A stretch of DNA of 64,000 nt from Chloroflexota bacterium (GTDB lineage: Bacteria; Chloroflexota; Anaerolineae; Anaerolineales; UBA4823), in NCBI GenBank assembly GCA_040752025.1, contig JBFMFR010000002.1, positions 34,232 through 98,231 on the forward strand. The letters are read 5' to 3'. Every line of letters starts with the position of its first letter. Position 1 is the first letter of the stretch. Below the pieces are notes generated by a model. That model saw nothing but the letters and a program-made list of their open reading frames with translations. It did not search any database and had not been told where the DNA came from. Shown in pieces: positions 8,165-46,856 of the stretch. Made by a program: the position numbers and the translations under genes.

Positions 8165-9616
8165 CTAGAATGGCCCATAGCCGATAGCAACGGCAATGCC
8201 CAGGAAAACCATAGTAATCAAAACGATCCAGGCCCACAGGCCCAACGTCCAGCGCATCCACTTGGGATAGCTGACCACCGTCAAACCCAGGCAGATGAGC
8301 AGGACCGGGTTGGTGGGATAGGCCAGGTTGGAGAAGCCATCCCCAAAGCAGTACGCCGTAACGGCCGCCTGGCGGGTTACGCCAACCAGGTCGGCCAAGG
8401 GGAGCAAGATGGGCATGAGCAAGAAAGCCTTGGCCGAACCGGATGCCACAAAGAATTCGATCAATAAAGCCAGCCCATAAACGATGAGAACAGCCAGGAA
8501 CGGGCTGGACTCGGGGAATACCTGGACGGCGCGGTACAGCACCGTGTCCAGGATGCCGCCCTGGGCGACGATGTGCTTGATGCTGGCTGCCATCAGGATC
8601 AGGGGAACAGCCGGCGCAATCCCGGCCAGTCCCTCGCCCACCGCGGTGAACACCTGGCGTCGCGCCGCGCCGCTCAGCAGGCCAGCGCCGATCCCGGCGA
8701 TGAAAAACAGCAGCCCCACCACTGGCAGTGAGAACGAGGCGATCGCCGGCACGAACGGGCCCGCCACCAGCGTCACCAGGATCAAGACGATGAAGACCAC
8801 CAGCCAGGCCAGGGCCCGCCTCAGGTGCGGGATTTCCACCGAATGCTCGCTGAAGTCCAGGTGCGCGTAGCGGGCGCGGCCGGCCTGGTCCTCGGCGTAC
8901 ACCGGCGAGGCCTGGGGCTCTCGTTCGATCTTGCGCGCGTAGCGCACCAGGAAGATGGCGAAGGCGATGTAAATCGCCAGGAAGATCGGGATGCGCAACC
9001 AGAAGCCGGAGAAAAGCGGCAGGCCGGCGATCTTCTGGGCCACCCCGATGGTGAATGGGTTGGTGATCGCTGCCGAGAAGCCCAGGTTGGTAGCCAGGAT
9101 ACTCATCCCCAGGCCTACGAGCGCATCCCAACCCAGGGTGTAGGACAGCGCCACCATCAGCGGCACCAGCGGCACGATTTCTTCGAAAATGCCGAAGAAA
9201 GCCCCGATCGCCATAAAGACAAAGGAGATAACCAGCAGAAGCTGGTACTTGCGCCCGCCGTAAGCCTGCACCAGGCGGCCGATGCTGGCGCGCAGCATGC
9301 CGCTTTTATCCAGCACGGCGAAGGCGCTGCCGATCATCAACAGGAAGATGATAATCACGATCACGGTCAGCCCATCCGGCCCCCACAGAACCTCCAGCGG
9401 GGCGGTGAACCAGCGCCAGACCGGGTAATCCGGAGCGGCTGTGTATTGGAATGAAGCCGGGTCGATCAACTCGCGCCCACCCTGGTCGATGCGCACGTAG
9501 CTCCCCGCCGGCACCACGCGGGTGAGCGCGCCGGCGATCATCATCAGCACGAACAGGATCAGCAAAGATTGGACGAAAGCACGCGTACTGATTTGGGCGC
9601 CAGCTTTAGGTTCCAT
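8165..9616 (-). CDS. YfcC/DcuC-like anion or amino-acid transporter family membrane protein
   Basis: Polytopic membrane protein of about 480 aa with a YfcC-like N-terminus. ATG 9616 is preceded by AGGAGG; the tracked TTG at 9637 is less likely. Confidence 0.65.
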   Translation of the reverse strand: MEPKAGAQISTRAFVQSLLILFVLMMIAGALTRVVPAGSYVRIDQGGRELIDPASFQYTAAPDYPVWRWFTAPLEVLWGPDGLTVIVIIIFLLMIGSAFAVLDKSGMLRASIGRLVQAYGGRKYQLLLVISFVFMAIGAFFGIFEEIVPLVPLMVALSYTLGWDALVGLGMSILATNLGFSAAITNPFTIGVAQKIAGLPLFSGFWLRIPIFLAIYIAFAIFLVRYARKIEREPQASPVYAEDQAGRARYAHLDFSEHSVEIPHLRRALAWLVVFIVLILVTLVAGPFVPAIASFSLPVVGLLFFIAGIGAGLLSGAARRQVFTAVGEGLAGIAPAVPLILMAASIKHIVAQGGILDTVLYRAVQVFPESSPFLAVLIVYGLALLIEFFVASGSAKAFLLMPILLPLADLVGVTRQAAVTAYCFGDGFSNLAYPTNPVLLICLGLTVVSYPKWMRWTLGLWAWIVLITMVFLGIAVAIGYGPF

Positions 9617-9818
9617 CAGGGTCAGCCTCCTGGTCAAGCGGTTTGGGGATCGAGTGCTTGGATGACTGAATTAATTATACATGATCCGCTTGTCAAACAG
9701 GGGAAGATCAGGATGATTCATCGCGCCGCGACGCCACACTCTTCATGCGCGCCGACCAGGTCGAAAGCGCCGGAGCCTCCATCGCCCAGGATGGGCGCAG
9801 TTGCCCTCAGCCCGCCTG

Positions 9819-10895
9819 TCAGGCCGGATGCCCGTTGCTGGCGACCTGCCTGGCGATGTAAGCCGCATCTGCGCCCACGCCGCCCAGCAGGGCCGAACTC
9901 AGCGCGCTCTGGAAGTGCAGGCCAACGAAATACAACCCCGGCGCTGCCGCCGCCACCCCGCGCTGGTGGCGCGGGTAGCCATACTCGTCGAACACCGGCA
10001 GGTCGATCCACTTGAAATTCGGGCGAAAGCCGGTTGCCCAGATCACGCTCTCCACTTGCAGTGTGCGACCATCCTCGCTTTGCGCTTGGCCCGCCTGGAC
10101 GCCGGCCACGCGTGATATGCATTCGACCCCGGCTGCTACCACCTCCTGCCGGTTGGAGCGGATCAGCGGGTTGCCGTGGTAGAGCACATTCGCTTTCATC
10201 TTTCGCCCCACAGGCGTATCCACGCTCAACACGTGGCTGAGGAACCACCAGTAGGGCCGCCCGCCGAAGGCCTTGCCCAGCGTATTGGCCGGGATGTGCC
10301 CCACGTCGCGCCCCGCCAGCCACACCTGCTTACCGGCCCTGGCGAGTTCCAGGGCGATCTCGGCCCCAGAATTGCCTGCCCCAACCACCAACACCGTCTG
10401 CCCTGTGATCTGTTCCGGGTTGCGGTAGGCGCTCGAGTGTAACTGCTGGATGCTCGGGTCGAGCTGGCTGGCAAAGTCCGGCGTATAGGGGGCCTGAAAT
10501 GGCCCGGTGGCGACGATTACATTCCTGGCAGAAAAACTGTCTCCGCCCGAGGCTACCTGGTAGGTTTGGTCGCTGCGCCTGAGCGCCTCCACCTTCACCC
10601 CGTGCCGCACCGGCAGGTGGAACTGCCCGGCGTAGCCTTCCAGGAAATCGGCGACTTCATCCTTCGTAGGGGAGTAGTAATCCGGTTTCGGGAACGGCAG
10701 CCCTGGCAGGCCGTCGAACTGGCTGGGAGTGAACAACCGCAGGCTGTCCCAGCGCTTGCGCCAGGTCTCGCCAGTGCGTTGACCCCCATCCAAAATGATG
10801 AAACCCTGGCCCTGTTGGGCGAGGAAATAACCGGCGGCCAGGCCTGCCTGCCCGCCGCCGATCACGATCGTCTGAAAGGATTTTTCGCTTGACAT
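9819..10895 (-). CDS. FAD/NAD(P)-binding flavin monooxygenase-like oxidoreductase
   Basis: Two dinucleotide-binding motifs, VIGGGQAGLAAG and VVGAGNSGAEIA. Divergent from the TetR gene. Confidence 0.75.
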   Translation of the reverse strand: MSSEKSFQTIVIGGGQAGLAAGYFLAQQGQGFIILDGGQRTGETWRKRWDSLRLFTPSQFDGLPGLPFPKPDYYSPTKDEVADFLEGYAGQFHLPVRHGVKVEALRRSDQTYQVASGGDSFSARNVIVATGPFQAPYTPDFASQLDPSIQQLHSSAYRNPEQITGQTVLVVGAGNSGAEIALELARAGKQVWLAGRDVGHIPANTLGKAFGGRPYWWFLSHVLSVDTPVGRKMKANVLYHGNPLIRSNRQEVVAAGVECISRVAGVQAGQAQSEDGRTLQVESVIWATGFRPNFKWIDLPVFDEYGYPRHQRGVAAAAPGLYFVGLHFQSALSSALLGGVGADAAYIARQVASNGHPA

Positions 10896-10916
10896 TCTAC
10901 ATCACCTGTAATATAA

Positions 10917-10951
10917 TATAGTCTAACTACAATGAATGGAGTTATACTATA
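10917..10951. promoter_or_regulatory. Candidate TetR operator (12-11-12 inverted repeat) in divergent promoter region
   Basis: TATAGTCTAACT (10917-10928) and AGTTATACTATA (10940-10951) are inverted repeats with one mismatch. They lie in the AT-rich 60-bp gap between the monooxygenase and TetR genes. Confidence 0.5.
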
Positions 10952-10955
10952 ATAA

Positions 10956-11582
10956 ATGACAGATGTCAAGAGGCAAAACAAGTCCACCCTGCGCCAGCGG
11001 CAGGCCCAGGCCACCCGAGACATGATCACCAGCGCCGCACAGGCGCTTTTTCTGGAGCAAGGCTATGCCTGCACCACCATCGAAGCCATCGCCGCGCAGG
11101 CCGGCGTAGCCGTCAGCACCGTGTATGCCGTATTCGGCTCCAAGCGCGGCATCCTGCGCGCCATCCGGCAAGCCTGGCACGAACACTCGCACATCCGCGA
11201 AGTCGCCTTCGGCGACCCGGGAGATGCCAGCCCGCAGGAGCGCATCCGCCAACTGGCGCAGGCCACCCGCAGGCAGTGGGAATCTGGCGCCCAGGTGCTC
11301 GCCATCTACACCGGGGCTTCTGCCGCCGACCCGCAGGCAGCCGCTGAGCTGGCCGAGGCGCTGGCAGGCCGGCGCAAAGGCATCCAGACCTTCGCCCGCA
11401 GCCTGGAGCCGCACCTCCGCCCGGGCCTGGATGCCGCCAGCGCCGCCGCCGTCCTGCAAGCCCTGTGCCTGCCAGAGGTGTACGATGAACTGGTGTGGCA
11501 CTCGGGTTGGTCGGCTGAGGCCTACGAAGCCTGGCTAACGCAGGCCATCCAACGGGAGTTATTGCCACAACAAACAGGTTGA
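10956..11582 (+). CDS. TetR/AcrR family transcriptional regulator
   Basis: N-terminal TetR HTH (TRDMITSAAQALFLEQGYACTTIEAIAAQAGVAVSTVYAVFGSK), 208 aa. Confidence 0.85.
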   Translation: MTDVKRQNKSTLRQRQAQATRDMITSAAQALFLEQGYACTTIEAIAAQAGVAVSTVYAVFGSKRGILRAIRQAWHEHSHIREVAFGDPGDASPQERIRQLAQATRRQWESGAQVLAIYTGASAADPQAAAELAEALAGRRKGIQTFARSLEPHLRPGLDAASAAAVLQALCLPEVYDELVWHSGWSAEAYEAWLTQAIQRELLPQQTG

Positions 11583-11593
11583 AGCTTGCGCCG

Positions 11594-12544
11594 TTACTGC
11601 CCAGCAAATGCGCTGACCTTCAGATCGAAACAGGCCGTTTCCGGGCTTTCCGTGATTAGCCGGTAGAATTCCTCATTGGTGAGCGCCGCCGCCTCTTCCA
11701 GGGATGTTCCCGTCGTGCGCGATGGGGGGTAGTGAGGCTCTTTGCCATACCACATTCGCATGGATGGCACCGGCGCTCGACCAGGGCAGAAATGATAGAA
11801 GTCCTCGCCTATTTCATCGATGAAAACCGACCTGTAAGAGATAATGACATCCTGGTCATCGAAAAACAGATCGTAATCGATGTAAATATAAAGTGGCTCG
11901 TTCCCATCATGCTGCATGCTTCGGAAAAGCCGTATCAAAGAAGGCACCCCGTATGTCCTCAAAATATTCTCCGGCCAATATGCCATCCACTCACTTCTTG
12001 GCGACTCGAGGTCAATATTCATAGATACTGATAAACTTGCGACAATATCATCTTCCACCTCAAAAAGAATTTCGCCTCCAAAATCGTTTTTGTATCTGTA
12101 AGGTACTCCATAAAAACTCGGTGTTGTATGGATCAGTTCTAGGCCTAATCTGGTCATCAGACCTTTTGCCTGGTTGAAATCTGTTTTACCCGGAACGATT
12201 CTCCAGAAACAGGGGGGCCCACAATCACCATTTGTCTTGAACAGCAACCGCATCCATTCTTCTCGTTCCTGTGCTGACAGCGTAGGAAATGGTGTGATGG
12301 TAGCGGTGATAGGCGTAGAAGAAAGAGTAGGTTGTATGCTATAAGGTGTGGGGGAAATTGTGCCTGAAAGCACAGTGGGTGCAATTGGGGATGTCAAAAT
12401 AGAAACTGGCTTTTCATCCGGCGAAGCCAGAGCAACCGGGGCGGCTGCTGTCGCCGCTAACGGCGCCTGGTGAGTGGAACAGGCGCAAAGTGTGAGCAAG
12501 ACGATCACATAAATTCCCCGGAAAGTAGAGGTTTGGTTGCACAT
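11594..12544 (-). CDS. Hypothetical lipoprotein
   Basis: Signal peptide with a lipobox-like LLTLCAC. Coherent ORF in a low-GC segment. No family recognised. Confidence 0.55.
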   Translation of the reverse strand: MCNQTSTFRGIYVIVLLTLCACSTHQAPLAATAAAPVALASPDEKPVSILTSPIAPTVLSGTISPTPYSIQPTLSSTPITATITPFPTLSAQEREEWMRLLFKTNGDCGPPCFWRIVPGKTDFNQAKGLMTRLGLELIHTTPSFYGVPYRYKNDFGGEILFEVEDDIVASLSVSMNIDLESPRSEWMAYWPENILRTYGVPSLIRLFRSMQHDGNEPLYIYIDYDLFFDDQDVIISYRSVFIDEIGEDFYHFCPGRAPVPSMRMWYGKEPHYPPSRTTGTSLEEAAALTNEEFYRLITESPETACFDLKVSAFAGQ

Positions 12545-12593
12545 TGCCTTATCGCAAAAATCTGCGTGAGCCTACATCTGCCGCTGCACTCTC

Positions 12594-12779
12594 TTATGAG
12601 TAATGCTTTCTCTTTTTGGAAGAATACACGATGAGAGCTACAAATAAGCCAAACACGGTTGCAAAGATTAAATCGTGCCCGAAGTTGAAACTGTCCGTTT
12701 GAATCAGATATCGAGTAAGTAAACTCCCGGATAAACCCCATAATACCAGACCAGCACAAAAAAAGCGATACTGCTCCAC
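12594..12779 (-). CDS. Small hypothetical membrane protein (61 aa)
   Basis: Two hydrophobic segments, GTG start with AAAGGAA upstream, located directly downstream of the XRE gene. Short, so uncertain. Confidence 0.35.
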   Translation of the reverse strand: MEQYRFFCAGLVLWGLSGSLLTRYLIQTDSFNFGHDLIFATVFGLFVALIVYSSKKRKHYS

Positions 12780-12800
12780 ATTCCTTTCAGCGTCGGGAAA

Positions 12801-13391
12801 TTACTTCACAATCGGGATACTCAGCGCATAATGGACAGGCTTATCGGACAGCGCTCGCATGGCATTAACGACACCCTGGTACATACAGAAAATGCCGATC
12901 AGCAAAAGCGGCATCGTGGAGCACATGACGAGTAACATAAAAGTGGGACCACCTTCCACAGTGTTTATTCCCGCTTCGCCCATGAAAGCAAGGGCAACTG
13001 GAACGATCATAAGCACGAATAGAACAGCAAAGAGCACCAGCGTCATAGTGATTTGGAAATTGAGCACCTGGCGGCCTTGTTTGTCGATCTTGACGGATTC
13101 CTTCTTCTTCCAGGACCATAGCAGCAGGGGAATGATGACGATGCAGAACATACTGCTGAGGTGCAGGAGAGCCAGCCAGAGATTCTCGTTAGCCGCGCCC
13201 TCGATGCTGAAATCGAATTCCAGCGCAGCGCTCAGGCATTGCAGCGTATAAGCGCGTGGGTCCACTTCGCCGCTTTCGATGCGCTGGATGGTGCGCAGGC
13301 TGACTTCACAGCTTTCCGCCAATTGTTCCTGTGTCAATCCTCTTTGCTGCCGCAGTTCAGAGACTTTGAGTCCGAGATCAGGTTGGTTCAT
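12801..13391 (-). CDS. XRE-family HTH protein with C-terminal multi-TM domain
   Basis: HTH LRQQRGLTQEQLAESCEVSLRTIQRIESGE followed by 3-4 hydrophobic helices. Confidence 0.75.
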   Translation of the reverse strand: MNQPDLGLKVSELRQQRGLTQEQLAESCEVSLRTIQRIESGEVDPRAYTLQCLSAALEFDFSIEGAANENLWLALLHLSSMFCIVIIPLLLWSWKKKESVKIDKQGRQVLNFQITMTLVLFAVLFVLMIVPVALAFMGEAGINTVEGGPTFMLLVMCSTMPLLLIGIFCMYQGVVNAMRALSDKPVHYALSIPIVK

Positions 13392-13734
13392 TAGTTACTC
13401 CTTTCGAAATTCTCCCTAATTATAGAAACAACCCGCAGAAACACAACGACGTAAGGACGACATTGCTACGACATTTCTCTTTTGGGCACGACATTTGCTC
13501 AACAAGGTCCCTGGCTCCTGGGAATACAGGCTGCCCAAAAAGGAAATCGCCCCCGGGAATGCAGGCAGCCGCCCTTCTCGAAGCGAAATTGCCGGCCTCT
13601 CATCCAAGATCAAGCCCTTGGTGATTGCCCATAAGTATAGCGCAATCCCACCTTACTTGCCAGGATGCCGTTGGTAGGGTCGTAGATGTAACCCGGTCTC
13701 GCCTAACCTCATTGTTTGCACCCAGGCCGAGGGC

Positions 13735-13797
13735 ATGAGCCTGAGCCAGTGGGCCAGCAAAGCCCTATCAGAGGCGGCAAGGCGCTCACCAGAGTGA
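13735..13797 (+). pseudogene. Relic of an antitoxin-like (HicB/CopG-type) C-terminus
   Basis: The in-frame peptide (TQAEG)MSLSQWASKALSEAARRSPE* resembles antitoxin C-termini. A stop lies immediately upstream, so there is no full ORF. Confidence 0.25.
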
Positions 13798-14000
13798 GGT
13801 AAGTTTCAACCTCATCAGAATCAACAGAGATCTACGTTTCATTCGAACCTCCTCTCTCCACATCCCATGCCATCGCCTCAAAACCCGCCAGAGTACTTTC
13901 AAATTTTACCGCATCCATCTGCGAAAATCTGCGCGCCTCTGCGGATCCCATCCAGCCCTTGGTGGTTGCCAATAAGATCTAAAGAACGCGACCCAGGATC

Positions 14001-29595: not shown

Positions 29596-30603
29596 TTATA
29601 ACGCATCCCGGTTAGCGGCGGCCTGTTCATAAGCAACTCCTCTCTCGCTGTAACCAGCAGAAATGGGGGTTTCCAGGCGGATTTGCATGCCCTCGCTGGC
29701 AGCAAAAGCGGCTTTGAAGCGCCGCCGGGCGCTGGCTTCGATCTGGGCAACGCACTGGTCTGAATAGCCCGGGTCGTAATGGAAAAGCGCCAGCCGCCTG
29801 ACCCGGGCGGCCCGGGCCACATCGCAGGCCATGGAGGCGGTGGAATGTCCCCAACCCTGTGTGGAGCGCACTCCTGGCGACAGGCCCAGGTAATGCTCCT
29901 GCGTGTATTGGGCGTCGTGGATCAGCAGATCAGCCTGTTGGGCAAAATCGACCAGGCGACGATCGGTATTGGCATAGCCTTCCGTGTCGGTGGCATATAC
30001 GACCGCCTGGTCCTGCCATTCGATACGGTAGACCAGCACACCCCCCGGGTGGGCATAAGAGCGCAGCACCCGCACGATCACCACTTCGTCCGTGCGCGGC
30101 GGCGCGTGGTTGGCCGGCAGCACCCGGGGCCCATCTGGCTCACCCAGGATCAAGATCTGGTGCTCGTTCAGGCTGTGAATCTCCCTGGCTGCGCTCATAT
30201 CCTGCAAAGTCACCGGGAAAACCGGTGGAACCATATTATGCGCCAGGACCTGCTCGAGATCGCTTTCGAAGGTGTGTGGGCCGAAGATGTGCATGTGGGT
30301 GGAGAGGATGAAAGCCGGCGTAAAAAACGGGAACCCCTGGGTATGATCGTGGTGCATGTGGCTGAACAGTAATGTCACCGAGACCGGCTGTTCAGATTGA
30401 TGCGATCGCTGCATCAGCTCCTGCCCCAGGGGGATAATGCCTGTGCCGGCGTCGAGAATAAGTGTCTGCCCGGCCACACAAACTTCGACACAAGGCGTAT
30501 TGCCGCCAAAGCGCACCGTTTTCTCCCCTGGTGTGGGATAACTGCCGCGCACCCCCCAAAACTTGATACGAAAAGCTTCCGGTTTAGTTTGAATCCCTTT
30601 CAT
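29596..30603 (-). CDS. MBL-fold metallohydrolase (class-II-phosphodiesterase-like HxHxDH)
   Basis: LFSHMHHDHTQG motif. ATG 30603 has GGAGGTG 6 nt upstream; the tracked GTG at 30612 is less likely. Confidence 0.7.
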   Translation of the reverse strand: MKGIQTKPEAFRIKFWGVRGSYPTPGEKTVRFGGNTPCVEVCVAGQTLILDAGTGIIPLGQELMQRSHQSEQPVSVTLLFSHMHHDHTQGFPFFTPAFILSTHMHIFGPHTFESDLEQVLAHNMVPPVFPVTLQDMSAAREIHSLNEHQILILGEPDGPRVLPANHAPPRTDEVVIVRVLRSYAHPGGVLVYRIEWQDQAVVYATDTEGYANTDRRLVDFAQQADLLIHDAQYTQEHYLGLSPGVRSTQGWGHSTASMACDVARAARVRRLALFHYDPGYSDQCVAQIEASARRRFKAAFAASEGMQIRLETPISAGYSERGVAYEQAAANRDAL

Positions 30604-30724
30604 ATCGCTCACCTCCTTTCCTCTTGGTTTCTATTTTCATTATGACGTTTTTGCATTCCTGACGAAAGGAAATATTTCTCACCATCTTTTGGAAATCGTT
30701 CCCTTTTGTGTTTCCTCCCTGTTT

Positions 30725-31080
30725 ATATCCACACTTTAAGAATCTATATATTTATCGTAGTCGTAGTAGAGCCTGTGGATATGTGGATGGTTCTCCTTGA
30801 GCGTGATTTGAGCCTCATATGCAGGCTTCCAGAGAGTCGTACCCCGTAGATATAGGGGCACGACTCTCTGGAATTGTCCACAGGGACTCTGGAGGTAAAA
30901 AGAGCGAGAATCGGCCGGATTCCACTGCTTTCGTCTATCCCACAGGCGAAAGGGGTATTTGGGTGAATTGCCAGGATACCCCCCAGATATGGGGGTAGCG
31001 AATCGGGCAAAAACAGAACAGGATTTCGAGTTTTCCCCAATCCGAGGGGTTTATCCACAGTTTTTCGCGACTTATCCACA
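30725..31080. promoter_or_regulatory. DnaA-box cluster (candidate oriC core or DnaA-regulated/titration site)
   Basis: Perfect TTATCCACA at 31051-31059 and 31072-31080. One-mismatch boxes at 30725-30733 (+), 30774-30782 (-) and 30874-30882 (+). Weaker boxes at 30782-30790 and 31192-31200. Confidence 0.6.
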
Positions 31081-31200
31081 GTTTTTGGGGAAAACACATT
31101 TCTCCTGTGTCCGGACGAACCCCACATGTGGGGGTTGATTTAATGCTATTTTTATGCCCTTTTACGCCTTGACAATAATGGCTGGTTTGGATTATCCTCT

Positions 31201-31220
31201 AATTAGATAAATATCTAATT
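31201..31220. promoter_or_regulatory. 9-2-9 inverted repeat, candidate ArsR-type operator
   Basis: AATTAGATA-AA-TATCTAATT lies immediately upstream of the ArsR-family gene and downstream of a TTGACA at 31169-31174. Confidence 0.45.
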
Positions 31221-31257
31221 ACTGCCCAAGTGCTCTCTATTGAGGAGAAGATCGTTG

Positions 31258-32391
31258 ATGACAGACAGCTTATCATCGGAGAAAACTGTAAGCCTGGAAA
31301 CGCCAGGCGGCGCGGCTGCTCGCTCGCCGCGGCTGCACTGGGAGGCCGGCAGCGCCTACGACCTGTTCATCAGCCAGGTGGTCTTGCATGCCCCCGAGCG
31401 CTTCGGCCTGCGGGCTTCCTGGGCAGCCGGGGTGCGCTCGCGCTTACCCGCCGAAGCGCGCCAGGCCCTGGAAACGGCTCGCCTGCTGTTCGGCGCCCCG
31501 CTACACTGGATTCATGCATTGCCGCAGCCCAGGGATGCCGCCAGCGCTTTGTGGGTGCTGCACCAGATGTTGCCCGAGGAACGCCTGCCGCGCCTGGCGC
31601 TTTACCCGGAGATGAATCCGGAATTGCAGGAGATGCTGCAAAACGTGGCCGCTCGCCGCTCCTGGATGGAGCGGGACCTGGAGGTGCTGCACGAAGCCCG
31701 CTGCCAGGAGCGCCGTGAAGCGCTGCGCCCCAAGCCTGCGGCGAGCATCCTGGATGCCTGGGCCCAGGCCGGAGCGTTTGGGGAAGCCTACCTGGCGGCG
31801 CTGCGAACTTATCAGCAGGTATTTTTCGCCGAAGAAGAGCAGCGCATCCGCCTGGCTTTGCAGGCTGCCCTGGAGCAGGCCCAACTGCTGGCCCAGGAGT
31901 TGGAACTGCCGGAAGTGCTCGAGCGCTTGTCGCGCGGCGTGCAGATCCCCGACCTGTTCGAGAAAGAAGACTTGACTCTGGTGCCATCTTACTGGGGCGC
32001 TCCGTTGATTTTCCTGGGCCGGCTGAGCGCCAGCCACACCCTCCTGGCCTTCGGAGCGCGCCCGGCGAACGTCTCCCTGGTTCCGGGGGAGTGGGTGCCG
32101 GAGGCCCTGGTGCAGGCCTTGAAGGCCCTGGCCGACCCGACCCGGCTGCGCATCCTGCGTTACCTGGCAGGTGAGCCGCTTTCTCCCACCGAGCTGTCGC
32201 GCCGTTTGCGCCTGCGCGCGCCCACTGTCACGCACCACCTCAGCGCCCTGCGCCTGGCCGGGCTGGTACACCTGACCCTGGGCCCCCGGGGTGAGCGTGA
32301 TTATTCGGCGCGCCTGGAGGCGGTCTACGCCCTGCGCCAGCAACTGCAAGAATTCCTGGAGGACGAGGGTCAAGAGGGGGACAAGCTGTGA
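31258..32391 (+). CDS. ArsR/SmtB-family regulator with long N-terminal domain of unknown function
   Basis: C-terminal LKALADPTRLRILRYLAGEPLSPTELSRRLRLRAPTVTHHLSALRLAGLV. ATG 31258 has GAGGAG about 10 nt upstream; the tracked TTG at 31240 is possible. Confidence 0.8.
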   Translation: MTDSLSSEKTVSLETPGGAAARSPRLHWEAGSAYDLFISQVVLHAPERFGLRASWAAGVRSRLPAEARQALETARLLFGAPLHWIHALPQPRDAASALWVLHQMLPEERLPRLALYPEMNPELQEMLQNVAARRSWMERDLEVLHEARCQERREALRPKPAASILDAWAQAGAFGEAYLAALRTYQQVFFAEEEQRIRLALQAALEQAQLLAQELELPEVLERLSRGVQIPDLFEKEDLTLVPSYWGAPLIFLGRLSASHTLLAFGARPANVSLVPGEWVPEALVQALKALADPTRLRILRYLAGEPLSPTELSRRLRLRAPTVTHHLSALRLAGLVHLTLGPRGERDYSARLEAVYALRQQLQEFLEDEGQEGDKL

Positions 32392-33674
32392 TCAACCTGA
32401 GAGTTTTACCCCGCCGCGCCGGGAGCATCGCCAAAGAATATGGGCAGCGCGTCGGCGCTTTCCGGCCCAACGCCCGCCTGTACCTGTTGAACGTGGTCCT
32501 GGTGGGGGCCGCCATGGGAGTCTTCCGCCTGCTGTTCAACTTCTACGTGCTCAGCCTGGGCTACGATGAGGCCTTGCTGGGCCGCCTGGTGACCACCAAC
32601 AGCCTGGCGGCGCTGCTGGCGGCTTTGCCGGTTGGCTTCCTGGCCGACCGCCTGGGGCGCAAGCGCTCCCTGCTGCTCTCTGGCGGCCTGACCAGCCTGG
32701 CGCTGGCAGGCATGGTGCTGTGGCCCGGCATCCAGGTGTTTTACGTCACCAACGTGCTGTTCGGCCTGGCGCAGAGCCTGTCTGGCGTGACCATGGGCCC
32801 CTTCCTGATGGAAAACAGCGGCGAGCAGGAGCGCACTTACCTGTTCAGCTTCAGCTCTGGCCTGCAGATGGCTTCGGCCTCGGTGGGCAACTGGATCGGC
32901 GGCTACCTGCCCACCTGGGTGGGCGCCTGGCGCGGCGTGGCTGCCACCGACAGCCTGGCCTACGGCGGGGCGGTGATGGTGGTGGCGCTGGGGATGGCGC
33001 TGGCCCTGCTGCCGCTGGCCTTCCTGCGCACGCCGCGCCTGGAGCAGTCCGAGCGCTCGGTCTTTGCCCCCTTGCAGTACGCCGCCGCCCATCCGGCCAC
33101 CCTGGGCAAGCTGGTCCTGCCCATGTTGATCACTTCGATCGGGGCTGGCCTGATCATGCCCTTCATGAACGTCTTCTTCCGCCAGGTGTACCACCAGCCC
33201 GACCCGGTGATCGGGGCCCTGTTCGCCTGGGGCTCGCTGGCCATGGGCGTGGGCTTGCTGGTAGCGCCGCCCCTGGCCGAGCGCATGGGCAAGATCCAGT
33301 GCGTGGTGGTCACCCAGGCGCTCTCCATCCCCTTCTTGATCCTGCTGGGCTTCGCACCCTGGTTCTGGGTGAGCGCTGCCGCATATTACGTGCGCGTGGC
33401 CTTGATGAACATGAGCGGCCCGGTGTACCAGACCTTCGTCATGGAGCACGTCGAAGACTCGGCCCGGGCCACGGTCGCCAGCCTGGTGAGCATGTCGTGG
33501 AACTTCGGCTGGGCCTTCAGCCCGATGATCAGCGGCTGGATGCAGGTGCGCTACGGCTTCGGCATGCCCTTCCTGGGCACGATCCTGCTGTACTCGCTTT
33601 CGATTTACCTGTATTGGGCCTTTTTCTGGAAAGGGCGTGTGCAGCCCATGGCTGCGCCGCTGCCCGGAGATTAG
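32388..33674 (+). CDS. MFS transporter
   Basis: About 12 hydrophobic helices and the MFS loop motif GFLADRLGRKRS. GTGA overlap with the ArsR stop. Confidence 0.85.
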   Translation: MINLRVLPRRAGSIAKEYGQRVGAFRPNARLYLLNVVLVGAAMGVFRLLFNFYVLSLGYDEALLGRLVTTNSLAALLAALPVGFLADRLGRKRSLLLSGGLTSLALAGMVLWPGIQVFYVTNVLFGLAQSLSGVTMGPFLMENSGEQERTYLFSFSSGLQMASASVGNWIGGYLPTWVGAWRGVAATDSLAYGGAVMVVALGMALALLPLAFLRTPRLEQSERSVFAPLQYAAAHPATLGKLVLPMLITSIGAGLIMPFMNVFFRQVYHQPDPVIGALFAWGSLAMGVGLLVAPPLAERMGKIQCVVVTQALSIPFLILLGFAPWFWVSAAAYYVRVALMNMSGPVYQTFVMEHVEDSARATVASLVSMSWNFGWAFSPMISGWMQVRYGFGMPFLGTILLYSLSIYLYWAFFWKGRVQPMAAPLPGD

Positions 33675-35911: not shown

Positions 35912-37885
35912 ATGCCACTATCAACCGGACAAATCCTGGAGAACCGCTACCGCATCGTCAAGCTGCTCGGGCAGGGCGGCTTTGGGGCGGTGTACCGCGC
36001 CTGGGACACCAAGCTGAACGGCCCGTGCGCCGTCAAGGAGAGCTTCGAGAGTTCGGCGGCGGCGCAGAAGCAGTTCGAGCGCGAGGCCTCGCTGCTCTTC
36101 AACCTGCGCCATCCCAACCTGCCGCGCGTTTTCGACTCGTTCATTTTGCCCGGGCAGGGCCTGTACCTGGTGATGGACTACATCGAAGGCCAGGATTTGC
36201 AGGAACTGCTCGAGCAGGCCGGCGGGCCGCTGCCCGAGGCGCAGGTGCTGCCCTGGATCGGGCAGGTTTGCGCTGCTTTGAGCTACCTGCACAGCCAAAC
36301 CCCGCCGGTGGTGCACCGCGACCTGAAGCCGGCCAACATCCGCATCACCCCGCAGGGGCAGGCTATGCTGGTGGACTTCGGCATCGCCAAGCTGTACGAC
36401 CCCAACCTGAAGACCACCGCCGGGGCGCGCGCCGTCACGCCGGGCTTCTCGCCGCCGGAGCAGTACGGGCGCGGCAGCACCGACCTGCGCTCGGATGTCT
36501 ACAGCCTGGGGGCCACGCTCTACGCCCTGCTGACCGGTCAGGCGCCGCCGGACAGCGTGGACGTGCTCACCGGCAACCAGCCCGCCCCGCACGCAGCCCG
36601 GGCGCTCAACCCGGGCGTTTCGGCGGGGGTCAGCGCCGCCATCGAGAAGGCCATGCGCCTGGAGCGGGCGGAGCGCTGGCCGAGCGTGGCGGCCTTGTGG
36701 CAGGCTTTGCAGGCCGGCGGGCCTCCAGCCCCCACCCCGCCCATCCCCCTGCGAGGGACAGCAGGGATGCAATCGCCCTCCCAGATGCAGAAAGGGGGCA
36801 CGCAGGTGGTGGGGTATGCCGGAGCGGACGGGCAGGCGGGCCGGGCCCGTCTGCCCCGGCCTGCGCAAGGTATCCCATGGAGTTGGGTGGCTGCGGCGCT
36901 GGGGCTGGTGATTTTAGCTTTGGGGGTGGCCCTGGTTCCCTCGCTGTTGGGCGGGGATAGCACCGCAGACAGCCAGGCGACGCAGACCGCCCTGGCCTGG
37001 CGGGCGGAGACAGCCGTGGCAGCAGCTACTCAGACCACCCGGCTGCCGGCGACCGATCCGCCCAAGGACATCGCGACTGCGAAGCCGCCTACGGCGACGC
37101 GTGCAGAGCCGACGCACACCTTGCCACCCACGGCGACACGTGCAGAGCCAACGCGGACTCTGCCGCCCACGCTTACACCCACCCCGGCCGCGCCAGAGGG
37201 CATGGTTCTGATCCCGGCTGGGGAGTTCCAGATGGGCAGCAAAAATGGGGGCGGCGATGAGAAGCCGGTGCACACAGTCTATCTGGATGCCTATTACATC
37301 GATGTCCACGAAGTGACCAACGCTCGCTACGCTGAGTGCGTGGCAGCCGGGGAGTGCACGCAGCCAGGTAGTGGCAGTAATTATGGCAATGCAGCCTATG
37401 CAGATCACCCGGTGGTCAATGTGGACTGGAACCAGGCGCGGGCCTACTGCCAGTGGCGCGGCGGGCGGCTGCCGACGGAGGCAGAGTGGGAGAAAGCGGC
37501 GCGGGGCGGGTTGGAAGGGATGGATTACCCCTGGGGGGATGAGACTCCGATCTGTGAAAAAGGAGCGAAGAACGGTGCGCAGTTCTCAGGTTGTGATGGG
37601 GACACAGTTCCAGTGGGTAGTTTTGCACCCAACGGCTACGGGCTGTACGACATGGCCGGCAACGTGTGGGAGTGGGTGCAGGATTGGTACCTGGAGAGCT
37701 TTTATGGCAGTTCGCCGCGTGACAACCCGACTGGCCCGGTCTCGGGCGAGTACCGCGTGGTGCGGGGCGGGGGCTGGGGCGGCAGTGGCGCTTTGCTCTC
37801 TGCCAACCGTGGCTGGAGCGCCCCTTCCAGCCGTAGCGGCAACCTGGGGTTTCGCTGCGTTGCGACGGTGAAGTCGCCTGAATAA
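35912..37885 (+). CDS. Ser/Thr protein kinase fused via TM and PT-rich linker to an FGE-sulfatase (SUMF1-like) domain
   Basis: Kinase motifs GQGGFGAVY, AVK, HRDLKPANI, DFG and SPPE. One TM segment. C-terminal FGE motifs (YIDVHEVTN, RLPTEAEWEKAARGG, GNVWEW, RGG.W). Confidence 0.9.
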   Translation: MPLSTGQILENRYRIVKLLGQGGFGAVYRAWDTKLNGPCAVKESFESSAAAQKQFEREASLLFNLRHPNLPRVFDSFILPGQGLYLVMDYIEGQDLQELLEQAGGPLPEAQVLPWIGQVCAALSYLHSQTPPVVHRDLKPANIRITPQGQAMLVDFGIAKLYDPNLKTTAGARAVTPGFSPPEQYGRGSTDLRSDVYSLGATLYALLTGQAPPDSVDVLTGNQPAPHAARALNPGVSAGVSAAIEKAMRLERAERWPSVAALWQALQAGGPPAPTPPIPLRGTAGMQSPSQMQKGGTQVVGYAGADGQAGRARLPRPAQGIPWSWVAAALGLVILALGVALVPSLLGGDSTADSQATQTALAWRAETAVAAATQTTRLPATDPPKDIATAKPPTATRAEPTHTLPPTATRAEPTRTLPPTLTPTPAAPEGMVLIPAGEFQMGSKNGGGDEKPVHTVYLDAYYIDVHEVTNARYAECVAAGECTQPGSGSNYGNAAYADHPVVNVDWNQARAYCQWRGGRLPTEAEWEKAARGGLEGMDYPWGDETPICEKGAKNGAQFSGCDGDTVPVGSFAPNGYGLYDMAGNVWEWVQDWYLESFYGSSPRDNPTGPVSGEYRVVRGGGWGGSGALLSANRGWSAPSSRSGNLGFRCVATVKSPE

Positions 37886-38885: not shown

Positions 38886-38958
38886 TATGGGGTGTTGTGC
38901 TAAAATTAATCAGGTCAACGGGCGAAAGTCCGAGTTTGTCCGCGATCGGGAGGCAGGG

Positions 38959-40452
38959 ATGACATTCGAGAAGGGTCATGCGTTGTTGGTTGGGGTGGGC
39001 AGCCACCCAAATGCGCGCCAATTGGATGTGTTGGAGACAGTAGCTGACGTTCAAGCGGTGGCGCAGGCGCTGGGCGATGAGCACCTGTGCGGCTATCCGT
39101 CCGGGCAGGTGCGCGTGCTGCACGACCAGTCCGCCACGCGCCAGGGCATCCTGGCCGGGCTGGATGAGCTGGCGGGGCGCGCCGGGCCAGACGACACAGT
39201 TTTTATTTTCTACAGCGGGCACGGCGATTACGGCACGGACGGGGCTTATTACCTGGTCAGTCACGATGCGCGTATCGAAAATGAGAAAGTTGCCAGCGGT
39301 ACGGGCGTCAGCCAGGCCGAACTGTTGGAGAAAATAGGCAAGATCCAGGCGCAGCGCCTCCTGCTGCTCTTCAACGCCTGCCATTCCGGGCAGGTCACGC
39401 CGGCCACGTTGGGCGCCGCGGCTGCCCCAGCCCTGGGCGCAAGGCCTCTGCCAGGCGCCGCCGCCGAGGCCCTGCTGGGCAGCGGCAGCGGGCGGGTGGT
39501 GATCACCGCCTGCCGCCAGGAGCAGTTATCCTACGTCGGCGACGGCCCGCAGACGCTCTTCGCCCAGGCGCTGCTGGATGCCCTGCACGGGCGCACCACC
39601 AGCGGGCGCGGCGGCTTCATCTCCGTTTTCGATCTGTACACCGCCCTGTACGACGCGCTCAGCGAGAAAGCCCCGCAGGAGCCGGAACTGACCGTGATCA
39701 AGGGCGTCGGCCCGTTCGCCGTGGCCCTGTACAACGGCGCCAGCCAGACCAACCTGGGCCTGGCCGAGGCGGCCCACGAGCCGCCTGAATACACCGCCGT
39801 GCGCCGCGTGCGCCCGGAGAAGGCCCGCTACCAGTTCCAGCAGCACAGCGCCGTGCACATCGGCAGCATCAGCGGGGTCAGCGGCGGGCAGATCAACATC
39901 GCCGGCCGGGACGTTAATACGCGGGTCGAGACGGGCGGGGGCGCTTACGTGGGCGGCAACGTGGACACCGGCGGGGGCAGCTTCGTGGGGCGCGATAAGC
40001 TGGTTTTCGGCGATGAGGTGCGCGGTGATAAGGTGCTGGGGGATAAGGTAACTGGGAACAAGGTAACTGGGGACCAGGTTGCCGGGGATAAAACTACGGT
40101 GGGAGACATCTCTGGCAGCACGGGGATTGCCATCGGGCGCAACGCCCAGGCGTATGTTTCGATGGGCGTGAGCGCGGCGGAGCTGGAGCGCCTGTTCCAG
40201 CCGCTGCTGGCGGCGGTCGCCCAGGCCCCGGCGCAGGCGCGCCCCGAGGCGGCGCGCATGGCGGAGCAGTTGAAGCAAGAGGCAGCTAAGGGCAAGCAGG
40301 CCGATGACAAGCTTATGGCCCGTTTGATCGAAGGCCTGGTGGACCTCGTGCCCGGGGCGGTCAGCGCCGTGGTGAGCGCCTTCGCTTCGCCGCTGCTGGC
40401 CGGCATCGCCGGCCCGGTGACGCAGTACGTTTTGTCGAAATGGCGCAAGTGA
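38959..40452 (+). CDS. Caspase-like (peptidase C14, orthocaspase) protein with C-terminal 5-aa repeats and helical tail
   Basis: His/Cys dyad contexts FIFYSGHGDY and LLLFNACHSGQ. Five 15-nt repeats (GDKVx) at 40024-40098. ATG 38959 has GGGAGG upstream; the tracked start at 38887 lies in the repeat. Confidence 0.8.
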   Translation: MTFEKGHALLVGVGSHPNARQLDVLETVADVQAVAQALGDEHLCGYPSGQVRVLHDQSATRQGILAGLDELAGRAGPDDTVFIFYSGHGDYGTDGAYYLVSHDARIENEKVASGTGVSQAELLEKIGKIQAQRLLLLFNACHSGQVTPATLGAAAAPALGARPLPGAAAEALLGSGSGRVVITACRQEQLSYVGDGPQTLFAQALLDALHGRTTSGRGGFISVFDLYTALYDALSEKAPQEPELTVIKGVGPFAVALYNGASQTNLGLAEAAHEPPEYTAVRRVRPEKARYQFQQHSAVHIGSISGVSGGQINIAGRDVNTRVETGGGAYVGGNVDTGGGSFVGRDKLVFGDEVRGDKVLGDKVTGNKVTGDQVAGDKTTVGDISGSTGIAIGRNAQAYVSMGVSAAELERLFQPLLAAVAQAPAQARPEAARMAEQLKQEAAKGKQADDKLMARLIEGLVDLVPGAVSAVVSAFASPLLAGIAGPVTQYVLSKWRK

Positions 40453-46780: not shown

Positions 46781-46796
46781 TGTTTCACGTGCAACA
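46781..46796. promoter_or_regulatory. parS-like site 1 (TGTTTCACGTGCAACA)
   Basis: 15/16 match to the consensus TGTTNCACGTGAAACA. Confidence 0.6.
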
Positions 46797-46840: not shown

Positions 46841-46856
46841 TGTTTCACGTGCAACG
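46841..46856. promoter_or_regulatory. parS-like site 2 (TGTTTCACGTGCAACG)
   Basis: 14/16 match to the parS consensus. Lies exactly 60 bp from site 1. The 10-bp hairpin CGAGCGCTGG/CCAGCGCTCG (46810-46837) lies between the two sites. Confidence 0.5.

Follow-up and report, generated by a model that had tools for sequence, protein, structure and literature searches.

A probable DnaA-dependent chromosomal origin of replication away from dnaA in an Anaerolineales bacterium

Introduction

In the origin of Bacillus subtilis, the incC region brings together DnaA-box#6 and DnaA-box#7, a GC spacer, the DnaA-trios and an AT-rich 27-mer (Richardson 2016/2019; Pelliciari 2021, 2023). This arrangement is the basal unwinding system (BUS), for which we follow the definition of Pelliciari et al. 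2021 (PMC8287927). Is the same arrangement used in the Anaerolineales, and does it have to stand beside dnaA? Here we describe a gap between genes, at positions 30604-31257 of a 64-kb stretch of DNA (the window, meaning the whole stretch that was analysed) from a bacterium of this order of the Chloroflexota. The gap carries the elements of incC in the same order and orientation as in B. subtilis and, judged from its sequence, is very probably the DnaA-dependent chromosomal oriC of its bacterium.

The BUS concept and dnaA-unlinked origins are already known; what is new is such an origin in an Anaerolineales lineage. Origins separated from dnaA are well known in general, Escherichia coli being the standard example. 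A description of an Anaerolineae or Chloroflexi oriC was not found in the searchable literature. The eight Chloroflexi entries retrieved from the BUS survey (two from Dehalococcoides, the others from Herpetosiphon, Roseiflexus, Chloroflexus, Thermomicrobium, Anaerolinea and Caldilinea) all have low trio scores (PMC8287927). The Anaerolineales are environmentally abundant and mostly uncultured, and a located origin aids growth-rate estimates from read depth, genome rotation and annotation.

If the gap is bounded by the longest open reading frames (ORFs) it runs from 30613 to 31239, the bounds given in the original prediction, which had pointed to a candidate origin here. The likely ATG starts, with their Shine-Dalgarno sequences, place it at 30604-31257. 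The proposal of an origin without dnaA nearby is supported by four observations that are set out below: the BUS module, the recurrence of its core 24-mer, the switch in strand composition and the lack of a dnaA or dnaN homologue in the 64 kb.

A BUS-like module in the gap

The whole module spans 30755-30790. It starts with a DnaA-trio array on the plus strand, 5'-TCG TAG TCG TAG TAG-3' (30755-30769; the trios are read 3'-GAT-5'), in which trios 1, 2 and 4 are canonical and trios 3 and 5 have a central C. A 4-bp GC spacer, AGCC, follows at 30770-30773; it is GGCC in most relatives, and B. subtilis likewise has GGCC on that strand. Next to the spacer two DnaA boxes abut on the minus strand (TGTGGATAT and TGTGGATGG, 30774-30790), the first reading ATATCCACA with one mismatch and the second CCATCCACA with two mismatches. 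In many relatives this second box is TGTGGATAA. When the window is aligned with L001 and L002 (Chloroflexota metagenome-assembled genomes, MAGs, the two nearest relatives that the genome collection contains), the trio array is invariant, and the longest invariant block covers 30755-30788 (5'-ATCGTAGTCGTAGTAG-AGCC-TGTGGATA-TGTGGATGG).

How does this module fare against the published BUS rules? These ask for a box with at most two mismatches no more than 16 bp from the first trio, and ATATCCACA lies 4 bp from the first TAG. A second tandem box, with up to four mismatches, should have the same orientation; here CCATCCACA, with two mismatches, abuts the first. Written 3' to 5', as in PMC8287927, the module of the window is GGTAGGTGT ATAGGTGT CCGA GATGATGCTGATGCT, with the trios GAT GAT GCT GAT GCT, and the B. 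subtilis NC_000964 entry reads AATAGGTGT TTAGGTGT CCGG GATGATAATGAAGATGAT, with the trios GAT GAT AAT GAA GAT GAT (PMC8287927). Comparison of the two strings shows that the boxes are oriented towards the trios as in B. subtilis, where box reversal inactivates incC (for the statement on orientation see PMC6669920).

Which DNA would then be unwound? Next to the trios, on their left, lies the AT-rich stretch CTTTAAGAATCTATATATTTA (~30734-30754), and all 120 related loci listed have AT-rich DNA at this position. The 30-mer at 30726-30755 (-30.1 kcal/mol) is a local minimum and the second least stable in the gap; the one starting at 30731 (-30.8 kcal/mol) is within the least stable ~0.1% of window 30-mers, so that the boxes do have an easily melted AT-rich element beside them. 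The original prediction had preferred another AT-rich stretch, at 31137-31230, which also falls in the least stable ~0.1%. Since both stretches rank so low, thermodynamics alone cannot choose between them, and the BUS layout favours the left one; by analogy with B. subtilis, the unwinding element is probably ~30734-30754.

The right-hand stretch contains a conserved promoter and operator instead. The promoter of an ArsR-MFS operon (plus strand, 31169-31221 with the operator) consists of TTGACA at 31169, 18 nt, and TATCCT, this -10 element ending at 31198. A repeat search found the operator, a perfect 10-2-10 palindrome (TAATTAGATA-AA-TATCTAATTA, 31200-31221, plus strand). The same TTGACA and the motif TTAGAT-N4-ATCTAA precede the orthologous ArsR gene in two long relatives, L201 (a 1.0-Mb contig, 47% GC) and L202 (a 3.05-Mb contig). 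The palindrome is also present in the alignment rows of L089 and L182, the conserved operator measuring 16-22 bp.

The module in other genomes

The 24-nt core of the module, TAGTAGRGCCTGTGGATATGTGGA, which starts at 30764, has an exact match in at least 120 metagenome contigs. Among the matches listed, 28 have a dnaA gene ending 120-570 bp (mostly ~200 bp) to the right of the 24-mer and about 30 have a dnaN gene starting 45-235 bp (mostly less than 100 bp) to its left. Judged by this gene context, its position between dnaA and dnaN in about 30 contigs shows the 24-mer to be an origin unwinding module.

The window belongs with a second set of matches. Sixty listed contigs, together with the window, L001 and L002 (63 loci), carry, between +255 and +325 relative to the BUS core, two perfect DnaA boxes in tandem with a spacing of 21 bp, and these 60 contigs have neither dnaA nor dnaN beside the core. 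In ~384 kb of flanks of contigs that share the window's layout, dnaA was not found by tblastn. Nor were dnaA or dnaN found in the 64 kb of the window, by tblastn or by Pfam annotation, as the original prediction had stated. The queries, B. subtilis DnaA and DnaN, recovered full-length homologues at 41-65% and 24-39% identity, respectively, and the same search finds both genes in classical loci. Throughout, dnaA-unlinked refers to 30 kb on each side in the window and to 10 kb on each side in relatives.

Alignment with L001, L002 and other relatives shows conserved blocks alternating with variable, indel-bearing DNA, and this block-wise conservation is, on the alignment, a non-coding pattern. 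Both L201 and L202 share synteny with the window, with clpC-rpsA-MoxR-VWA on one side of the origin and ArsR on the other, and every element is present in them. In L202, which is ERZ25039533 contig_12334 (3,054,499 bp), the homologous site lies near 2.681 Mb, and on ERZ25039527 contig_8132 it lies near 0.958 Mb.

Is the separation from dnaA old or recent? In L151, a Dehalococcoidia MAG (its DnaA fragment, P0121, was named by NCBI), the same layout lies directly downstream of dnaA, and L089 is an exception with dnaN 3.8 kb away. Because of these two exceptions linkage to dnaA looks ancestral, and we infer that it was apparently lost in the lineage of the window. A search with the DnaA C-terminal fragment of L151 gave short domain-IV fragments only, none of them on the 1.0-Mb or 3.05-Mb contigs. 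Five proteins of 98-155 aa (P0152, P0163, P0174, P0205 and P0207), on contigs of 46-204 kb, contain the DnaA C-terminal DNA-binding domain (PF08299) alone; rather than products of truncated genes, these may be free-standing domain IV proteins.

DnaA boxes

Five of the 15 boxes with at most one mismatch in the window fall in the gap, starting at 30725, 30774, 30874, 31051 and 31072. The last two are perfect copies of TTATCCACA on the plus strand (31051-31059 and 31072-31080), in the same orientation, 21 bp apart and embedded in a direct repeat of 15-20 nt. They are the only perfect boxes in the whole 64 kb, where 0.21 would be expected. This pair and its repeat had been described correctly in the original prediction, as had the one-mismatch boxes at 30725 (plus), 30774 (minus) and 30874 (plus), and all of its coordinates hold. 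It had also listed two weaker matches, whose fates diverge: 30782-30790 gains in standing as CCATCCACA, the second minus-strand box of the conserved abutting pair, and 31192-31200, in the -10 region of the promoter, is probably a chance match.

Could such a cluster be an accident of composition? The gap is AT-richer than its surroundings (44% GC, against ~60% for the window), which is the one thing to be said for an artefact of chance or of base composition in AT-rich intergenic DNA. Five boxes within 650 bp did not occur in any of 300 whole-window shuffles (maximum 3), nor was the observed count attained in 5000 shuffles of the gap alone at its own 44% GC (maximum again 3). These shuffles and the block-wise conservation over more than 60 contigs refute the artefact, to which we assign a practically negligible probability. 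Mackiewicz and co-workers ask for at least three DnaA boxes with an average spacing below 100 bp (quoted in PMC7561715); the five boxes with at most one mismatch have a mean spacing of 87 bp.

The remaining boxes are better understood with the relatives at hand. The one at 30725-30733 (ATATCCACA, plus strand, one mismatch) lies beyond the unwinding element and faces the BUS boxes. Of 55 related origins, 10 have a plus-strand box with no more than one mismatch at offsets of -35 to -43 relative to the BUS core, against 1.4% in shuffles. At 30874-30882 the window has TTGTCCACA (plus strand, one mismatch), where the majority of related origins have TTATCCACA. A weak plus-strand box with two mismatches, TTTTCCCCA (31031-31039), 20 bp upstream of the perfect pair, reads TTTTCCACA in most relatives and has an inverted twin at 31086-31094.

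Distances from the BUS boxes to the tandem boxes step by ~11 bp among the relatives (234, 245, 256, 267, 278 and 289 bp), with p-values for the phasing that are nominal and inflated because the sequences are related. Distal boxes in B. subtilis show helical phasing (PMC6669920), and by that analogy the ~11-bp steps fit a helical phasing of the distal boxes here.

Strand composition

Does the composition of the two strands change at the module? Offsets were measured between the minimum of the cumulative G-C skew and the start of the BUS 24-mer, which is 30764 in the window. The minimum of the window is at 30756, an offset of 8 bp, with a skew of -0.035 on the left and +0.066 on the right (permutation p < 5e-5). 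Offsets are 104 bp in L201 (left -0.094, right +0.076, p < 5e-5), 45 bp in L202 (left -0.067, right +0.011, p 0.01) and 630 bp in L001 (left -0.033, right +0.079, p 5e-5). On local stretches, the skew thus changes sign at the locus in the window and likewise in three of the four syntenic relatives, and the right flank has a higher skew than the left in 12 of the 14 related contigs having both flanks.

Might the gap instead be a DnaA-binding regulatory site, with the real oriC beside dnaA elsewhere? It could be a divergent promoter, between the ArsR-MFS operon and the gene for a metallo-beta-lactamase-fold (MBL-fold) protein on its left, or a titration or reactivation site of the datA/DARS kind. 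The original prediction had offered a titration site or a DnaA-regulated promoter as its alternative. The window does lack dnaA and dnaN, its perfect boxes stand ~90 bp upstream of a conserved promoter, and the boxes with at most one mismatch number just five. However, such a site would have no need of trios, a spacer, AT-rich DNA and an abutting pair arranged exactly as in B. subtilis, and the same 24-mer is found in bona fide dnaA-dnaN origins. A titration site or regulated promoter would not cause a skew switch in the window and three of four relatives. Moreover, the element is constant while its left neighbour changes among relatives (MBL-fold gene, VWA gene, M1 peptidase, ABC binding protein). 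The BUS module and the skew switch thus count against regulation as the primary function, and we consider this explanation very unlikely; the DnaA boxes may exert a secondary regulatory effect on the ArsR-MFS promoter.

Two parS-like sites on the plus strand lie 15.7 kb to the right of the proposed origin, much as the original prediction had noted: TGTTTCACGTGCAACA (46781-46796), with one mismatch to TGTTTCACGTGAAACA, and, 60 bp from it, TGTTTCACGTGCAACG (46841-46856), with two. Against the two sites found, 0.08 would be expected, and no shuffle yielded two. They are intergenic, between a gene for an Rce1-like protease and a gene without a Pfam match. Neither parA nor parB was identified in the window.

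How firm is the reading as an origin?

Several observations weigh against reading the gap as the origin. The first concerns the trios. The published rule asks for at least three consecutive NAN trios, and TAG TAG TCG TAG TCG has two consecutive trios with a central A. This interruption is systematic: in 49 of 57 related dnaA-less origins trio 3 is non-canonical (central C in 31, T in 16 and G in 2), and TAG or TAA predominates at trios 1, 2, 4 and 5 of the dnaA-less class (among the related loci L081-L200). A central C in trio 5 is shared by the window and eight relatives. Of 51 sequences in the dnaA-dnaN class, 36 carry A in the middle of trio 3 (TAG in 34), and three origins of this class (L094, L109 and L120) read TCG TCG TCG TAG TAG. 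How serious is the break? In B. subtilis, when the central adenine is replaced, C alone preserves strand separation at a near-native level together with good initiation in vivo (PMC10721633). As a central C is tolerated there and TCG trios exist in dnaA-dnaN origins, we treat the interrupted array, by analogy, as a tolerated variant. The departure from the NAN rule lowers a strict, rule-based BUS claim, not the claim that the module works in a BUS-like way.

The second concerns stability and strand composition. The least stable 30-mer in the gap coincides with the operator (31192-31221), not with the proposed unwinding element. The skew minimum is a local one, in 64 kb of a 285-kb contig, and sits on a flat plateau at ~29.6-34.6 kb. 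L002 is almost without a skew change (offset 859 bp, left -0.002, right +0.008, permutation p 0.37).

The third concerns dnaA. The usual landmark, dnaA/dnaN, is not within 30 kb, its adjacency being common and not obligatory, and a second, denser box cluster near dnaA may exist elsewhere in the genome. The main residual alternative is indeed that the gap is one of two origin-like loci, whether secondary, dormant, condition-specific or the unwinding half of a split origin, and that a cluster beside dnaA shares or dominates initiation. The neighbourhood of dnaA is outside the sequence covered, and bipartite origins are known in other phyla (PMC7561715). DoriC-based work also puts the origin of Anaerolinea thermophila near coordinate 1, at 420-460 (PMC8287927), but this entry is weak, with five trios and a score of 7 against 25 for B. 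subtilis, and the other Chloroflexi entries found in the survey table are likewise weak (PMC8287927). The skew switch of four genomes, for its part, sits at the locus described here, where the high-affinity boxes and the unwinding module occur together and are self-sufficient by B. subtilis criteria (PMC6669920). Two loci sharing initiation are therefore improbable, and a single oriC in the gap is much the better reading.

Palindromes

Besides the DnaA boxes, the gap contains a family of palindromes built of a C-run, an ATAT-like core and a G-run (of the form CCCCC-ATATAT-GGGGG; family sequence CCCCCATATATGGGGG). Copy 1 (CCCCGTAGATATAGGGG, 30842-30858) is conserved at the same offset in some relatives. 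Copy 2 (CCCCCCAGATATGGGGG, 30979-30995) is the best conserved non-DnaA element of the origin. Copy 3 (CCCCACATGTGGGGG, 31120-31134) includes CCCCACATGTGGGG (31120-31133), the 14-bp palindrome in which the original prediction had seen CCACA half-boxes on both strands; the palindrome is there, and it is one copy of this family rather than a carrier of half-boxes. A weaker copy lies at 30812-30826. Copies 1-3 start 137 and 139 bp apart. Palindromes at matching offsets are present in 30 of 54 distinct related origins, and in the majority of these 30, copy 2 has an offset of about +205 relative to the BUS core. Neither 384 kb of flanks nor 1.19 Mb of further Chloroflexota DNA yielded a palindrome of this type, and as far as this sequence reaches the palindromes are origin-exclusive, which makes them candidate sites for a lineage-specific origin factor.

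NrdR boxes were considered as an identity for the palindromes and set aside: only the ATATAT core is common with the NrdR consensus, the usual close tandem is missing, and the palindromes are found nowhere else in 1.6 Mb. Around copy 1, an inverted repeat with 19-nt arms (30827-30873) is 95% complementary, has a 9-nt loop and would fold as single-stranded DNA into a hairpin of -19.4 kcal/mol (z -8.6). Its long arms show no obvious conservation in L001 or L002.

Flanking genes

On the left, the gap adjoins the gene for the MBL-fold protein (29596-30603, minus strand; 335 aa from an ATG at 30603; Pfam Lactamase_B_2), for which a Shine-Dalgarno sequence and the ATG are readable. Orthologues with 65% identity adjoin the same element in L001 and L002. 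Is the element then tied to this gene? This idea was rejected: the homologues of Herpetosiphon, Chloroflexaceae and Roseiflexaceae have no adjoining box cluster, so the element is tied to the lineage, not to the MBL-fold gene. In Herpetosiphon aurantiacus (CP000875, 53866-74777) the MBL-fold orthologue is ~64 kb from the DoriC origin, which is near coordinate 1, and a DnaA-box cluster was not found beside this orthologue.

On the right follow, on the plus strand, the genes for an ArsR-type helix-turn-helix (HTH) protein (31258-32391, 377 aa) and an MFS transporter (32388-33674), the second gene of the operon; both assignments come from Pfam. The first 290 aa of the ArsR-type regulator have no Pfam match. 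At no fewer than 10 related loci the origin is followed immediately on its right by orthologues of the ArsR-MFS operon; in L201 the operon occupies 8840-11284 and in L202 10001-11074. The MFS protein is more than 70% identical across at least the best 120 of 2,961 significant homologues, and to judge from these sequences it is unusually conserved for a transporter. Among homologues of the flanking MFS transporter and ArsR-type protein, several carry the source name 'Anaerolineales bacterium'.

The genes that flank the origin are core housekeeping genes. Those that the original prediction had placed on the minus strand to the left (ftsK, clpC and rpsA) and on the plus strand to the right (ssb, glyQS, dnaG and rpoD) are indeed found there. 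Co-directionality with the inferred forks is modest overall, with 61% of the coding bases to the left of the origin and 71% of those to its right, and has been given little weight for this reason.

An RNA gene in the gap was also considered and dropped, as Rfam and tRNA scans of the window came back empty. Farther out, the stretch 11000-14000 has a GC content of 0.50-0.54, against ~0.61, and contains ORFs whose coding signal is poor as well as an HTH_3/DUF4870 gene (12801-13391, minus strand); the stretch may have been acquired as an island. A Ser/Thr protein kinase fused to an FGE-sulfatase (sulfatase-modifying-factor-like) domain is encoded at 35912-37885, near a caspase-domain protein at 38887-40452.

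A possible mechanism

How would the gap work as an origin? The analysis itself gives the sequence elements, the extent to which they are conserved and the switch in strand composition; that DnaA binds, that the DNA loops and unwinds and that helicase is loaded is what we infer from the B. subtilis basal unwinding system. DnaA would bind the perfect boxes (31051 and 31072), the weaker boxes around them and the abutting pair at 30774-30790. From this pair a DnaA-ATP oligomer would grow leftwards, over the 4-bp spacer and onto the TAG-type trios of the plus strand (30755-30769). The oligomer would capture bases and open the AT-rich DNA at ~30734-30754, with the box at 30725 as its far boundary. 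The two perfect boxes in tandem, 277 bp off, would probably feed DnaA to the module via a helically phased loop, as the distal boxes of B. subtilis do, and forks would leave in both directions.

A bolder proposal is that Anaerolineales-type origins form a distinct oriC variant, in which a second factor or a DNA structure acts at the three to four palindromes ~138-140 bp apart and the trios are systematically interrupted at trio 3. Its corollary would be that database origins placed next to dnaA in Anaerolineae, and perhaps in other Chloroflexi, are misplaced. We put this forward tentatively, as a possibility somewhat more doubtful than not. Quite apart from it, a near-perfect module at a dnaA-less locus of the order, together with the weak entries retrieved from the survey (PMC8287927), suggests that some database origins of Chloroflexi may be misplaced, and the BUS may be more universal than the entries seen in the table of PMC8287927 suggest.

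Comparison with known systems

Escherichia coli has two kinds of locus to set beside the gap. Its oriC, between gidA and mioC, is likewise a chromosomal origin apart from dnaA. There, AT-rich DNA, a spacer and then a TGTGGATAA-type box (R1) follow one another at the unwinding side, and the order in the window is the same. Unlike E. coli oriC, the gap has none of the AT-rich 13-mer L/M/R repeats, and instead of clustered GATC sites it has a single one (31250), with no sign of control of the Dam/SeqA type; the neighbouring genes are other ones, and the trios of the window are far more canonical. The datA and DARS loci resemble the gap as DnaA-box clusters away from dnaA. They are not known to have a trio array or unwinding module or a coincident switch in strand composition, and the gap has both an unwinding module and a skew switch.

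The dnaA-linked origin of L151 is closer. It shares the 24-nt core, the tandem TTATCCACA pair (at +302 and +323) and related C-run/G-run palindromes. In L151, unlike the window, dnaA ends ~665 bp to the right of the BUS and a further box pair precedes it; the lineage of the window has the ArsR-MFS operon or other genes where L151 has dnaA.

The likeness to B. subtilis is closer still in L002, which reads TAGTAG-GGCC-TGTGGATA-TGTGGATAA. As in B. subtilis, high-affinity distal boxes stand a few hundred bp off, at a distance that is apparently helically phased. The window differs in that its module is not between dnaA and dnaN, in belonging to a group with a non-canonical trio 3 (the 49 of 57 origins above), in the extra box that faces the BUS across the unwinding element and in its three or four origin-specific C-run/ATAT/G-run palindromes. 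Three of these features, the non-canonical third trio, the ~11-bp distance steps and the box facing the BUS across the unwinding element, offer natural variation to set beside the mutagenesis of the B. subtilis origin.

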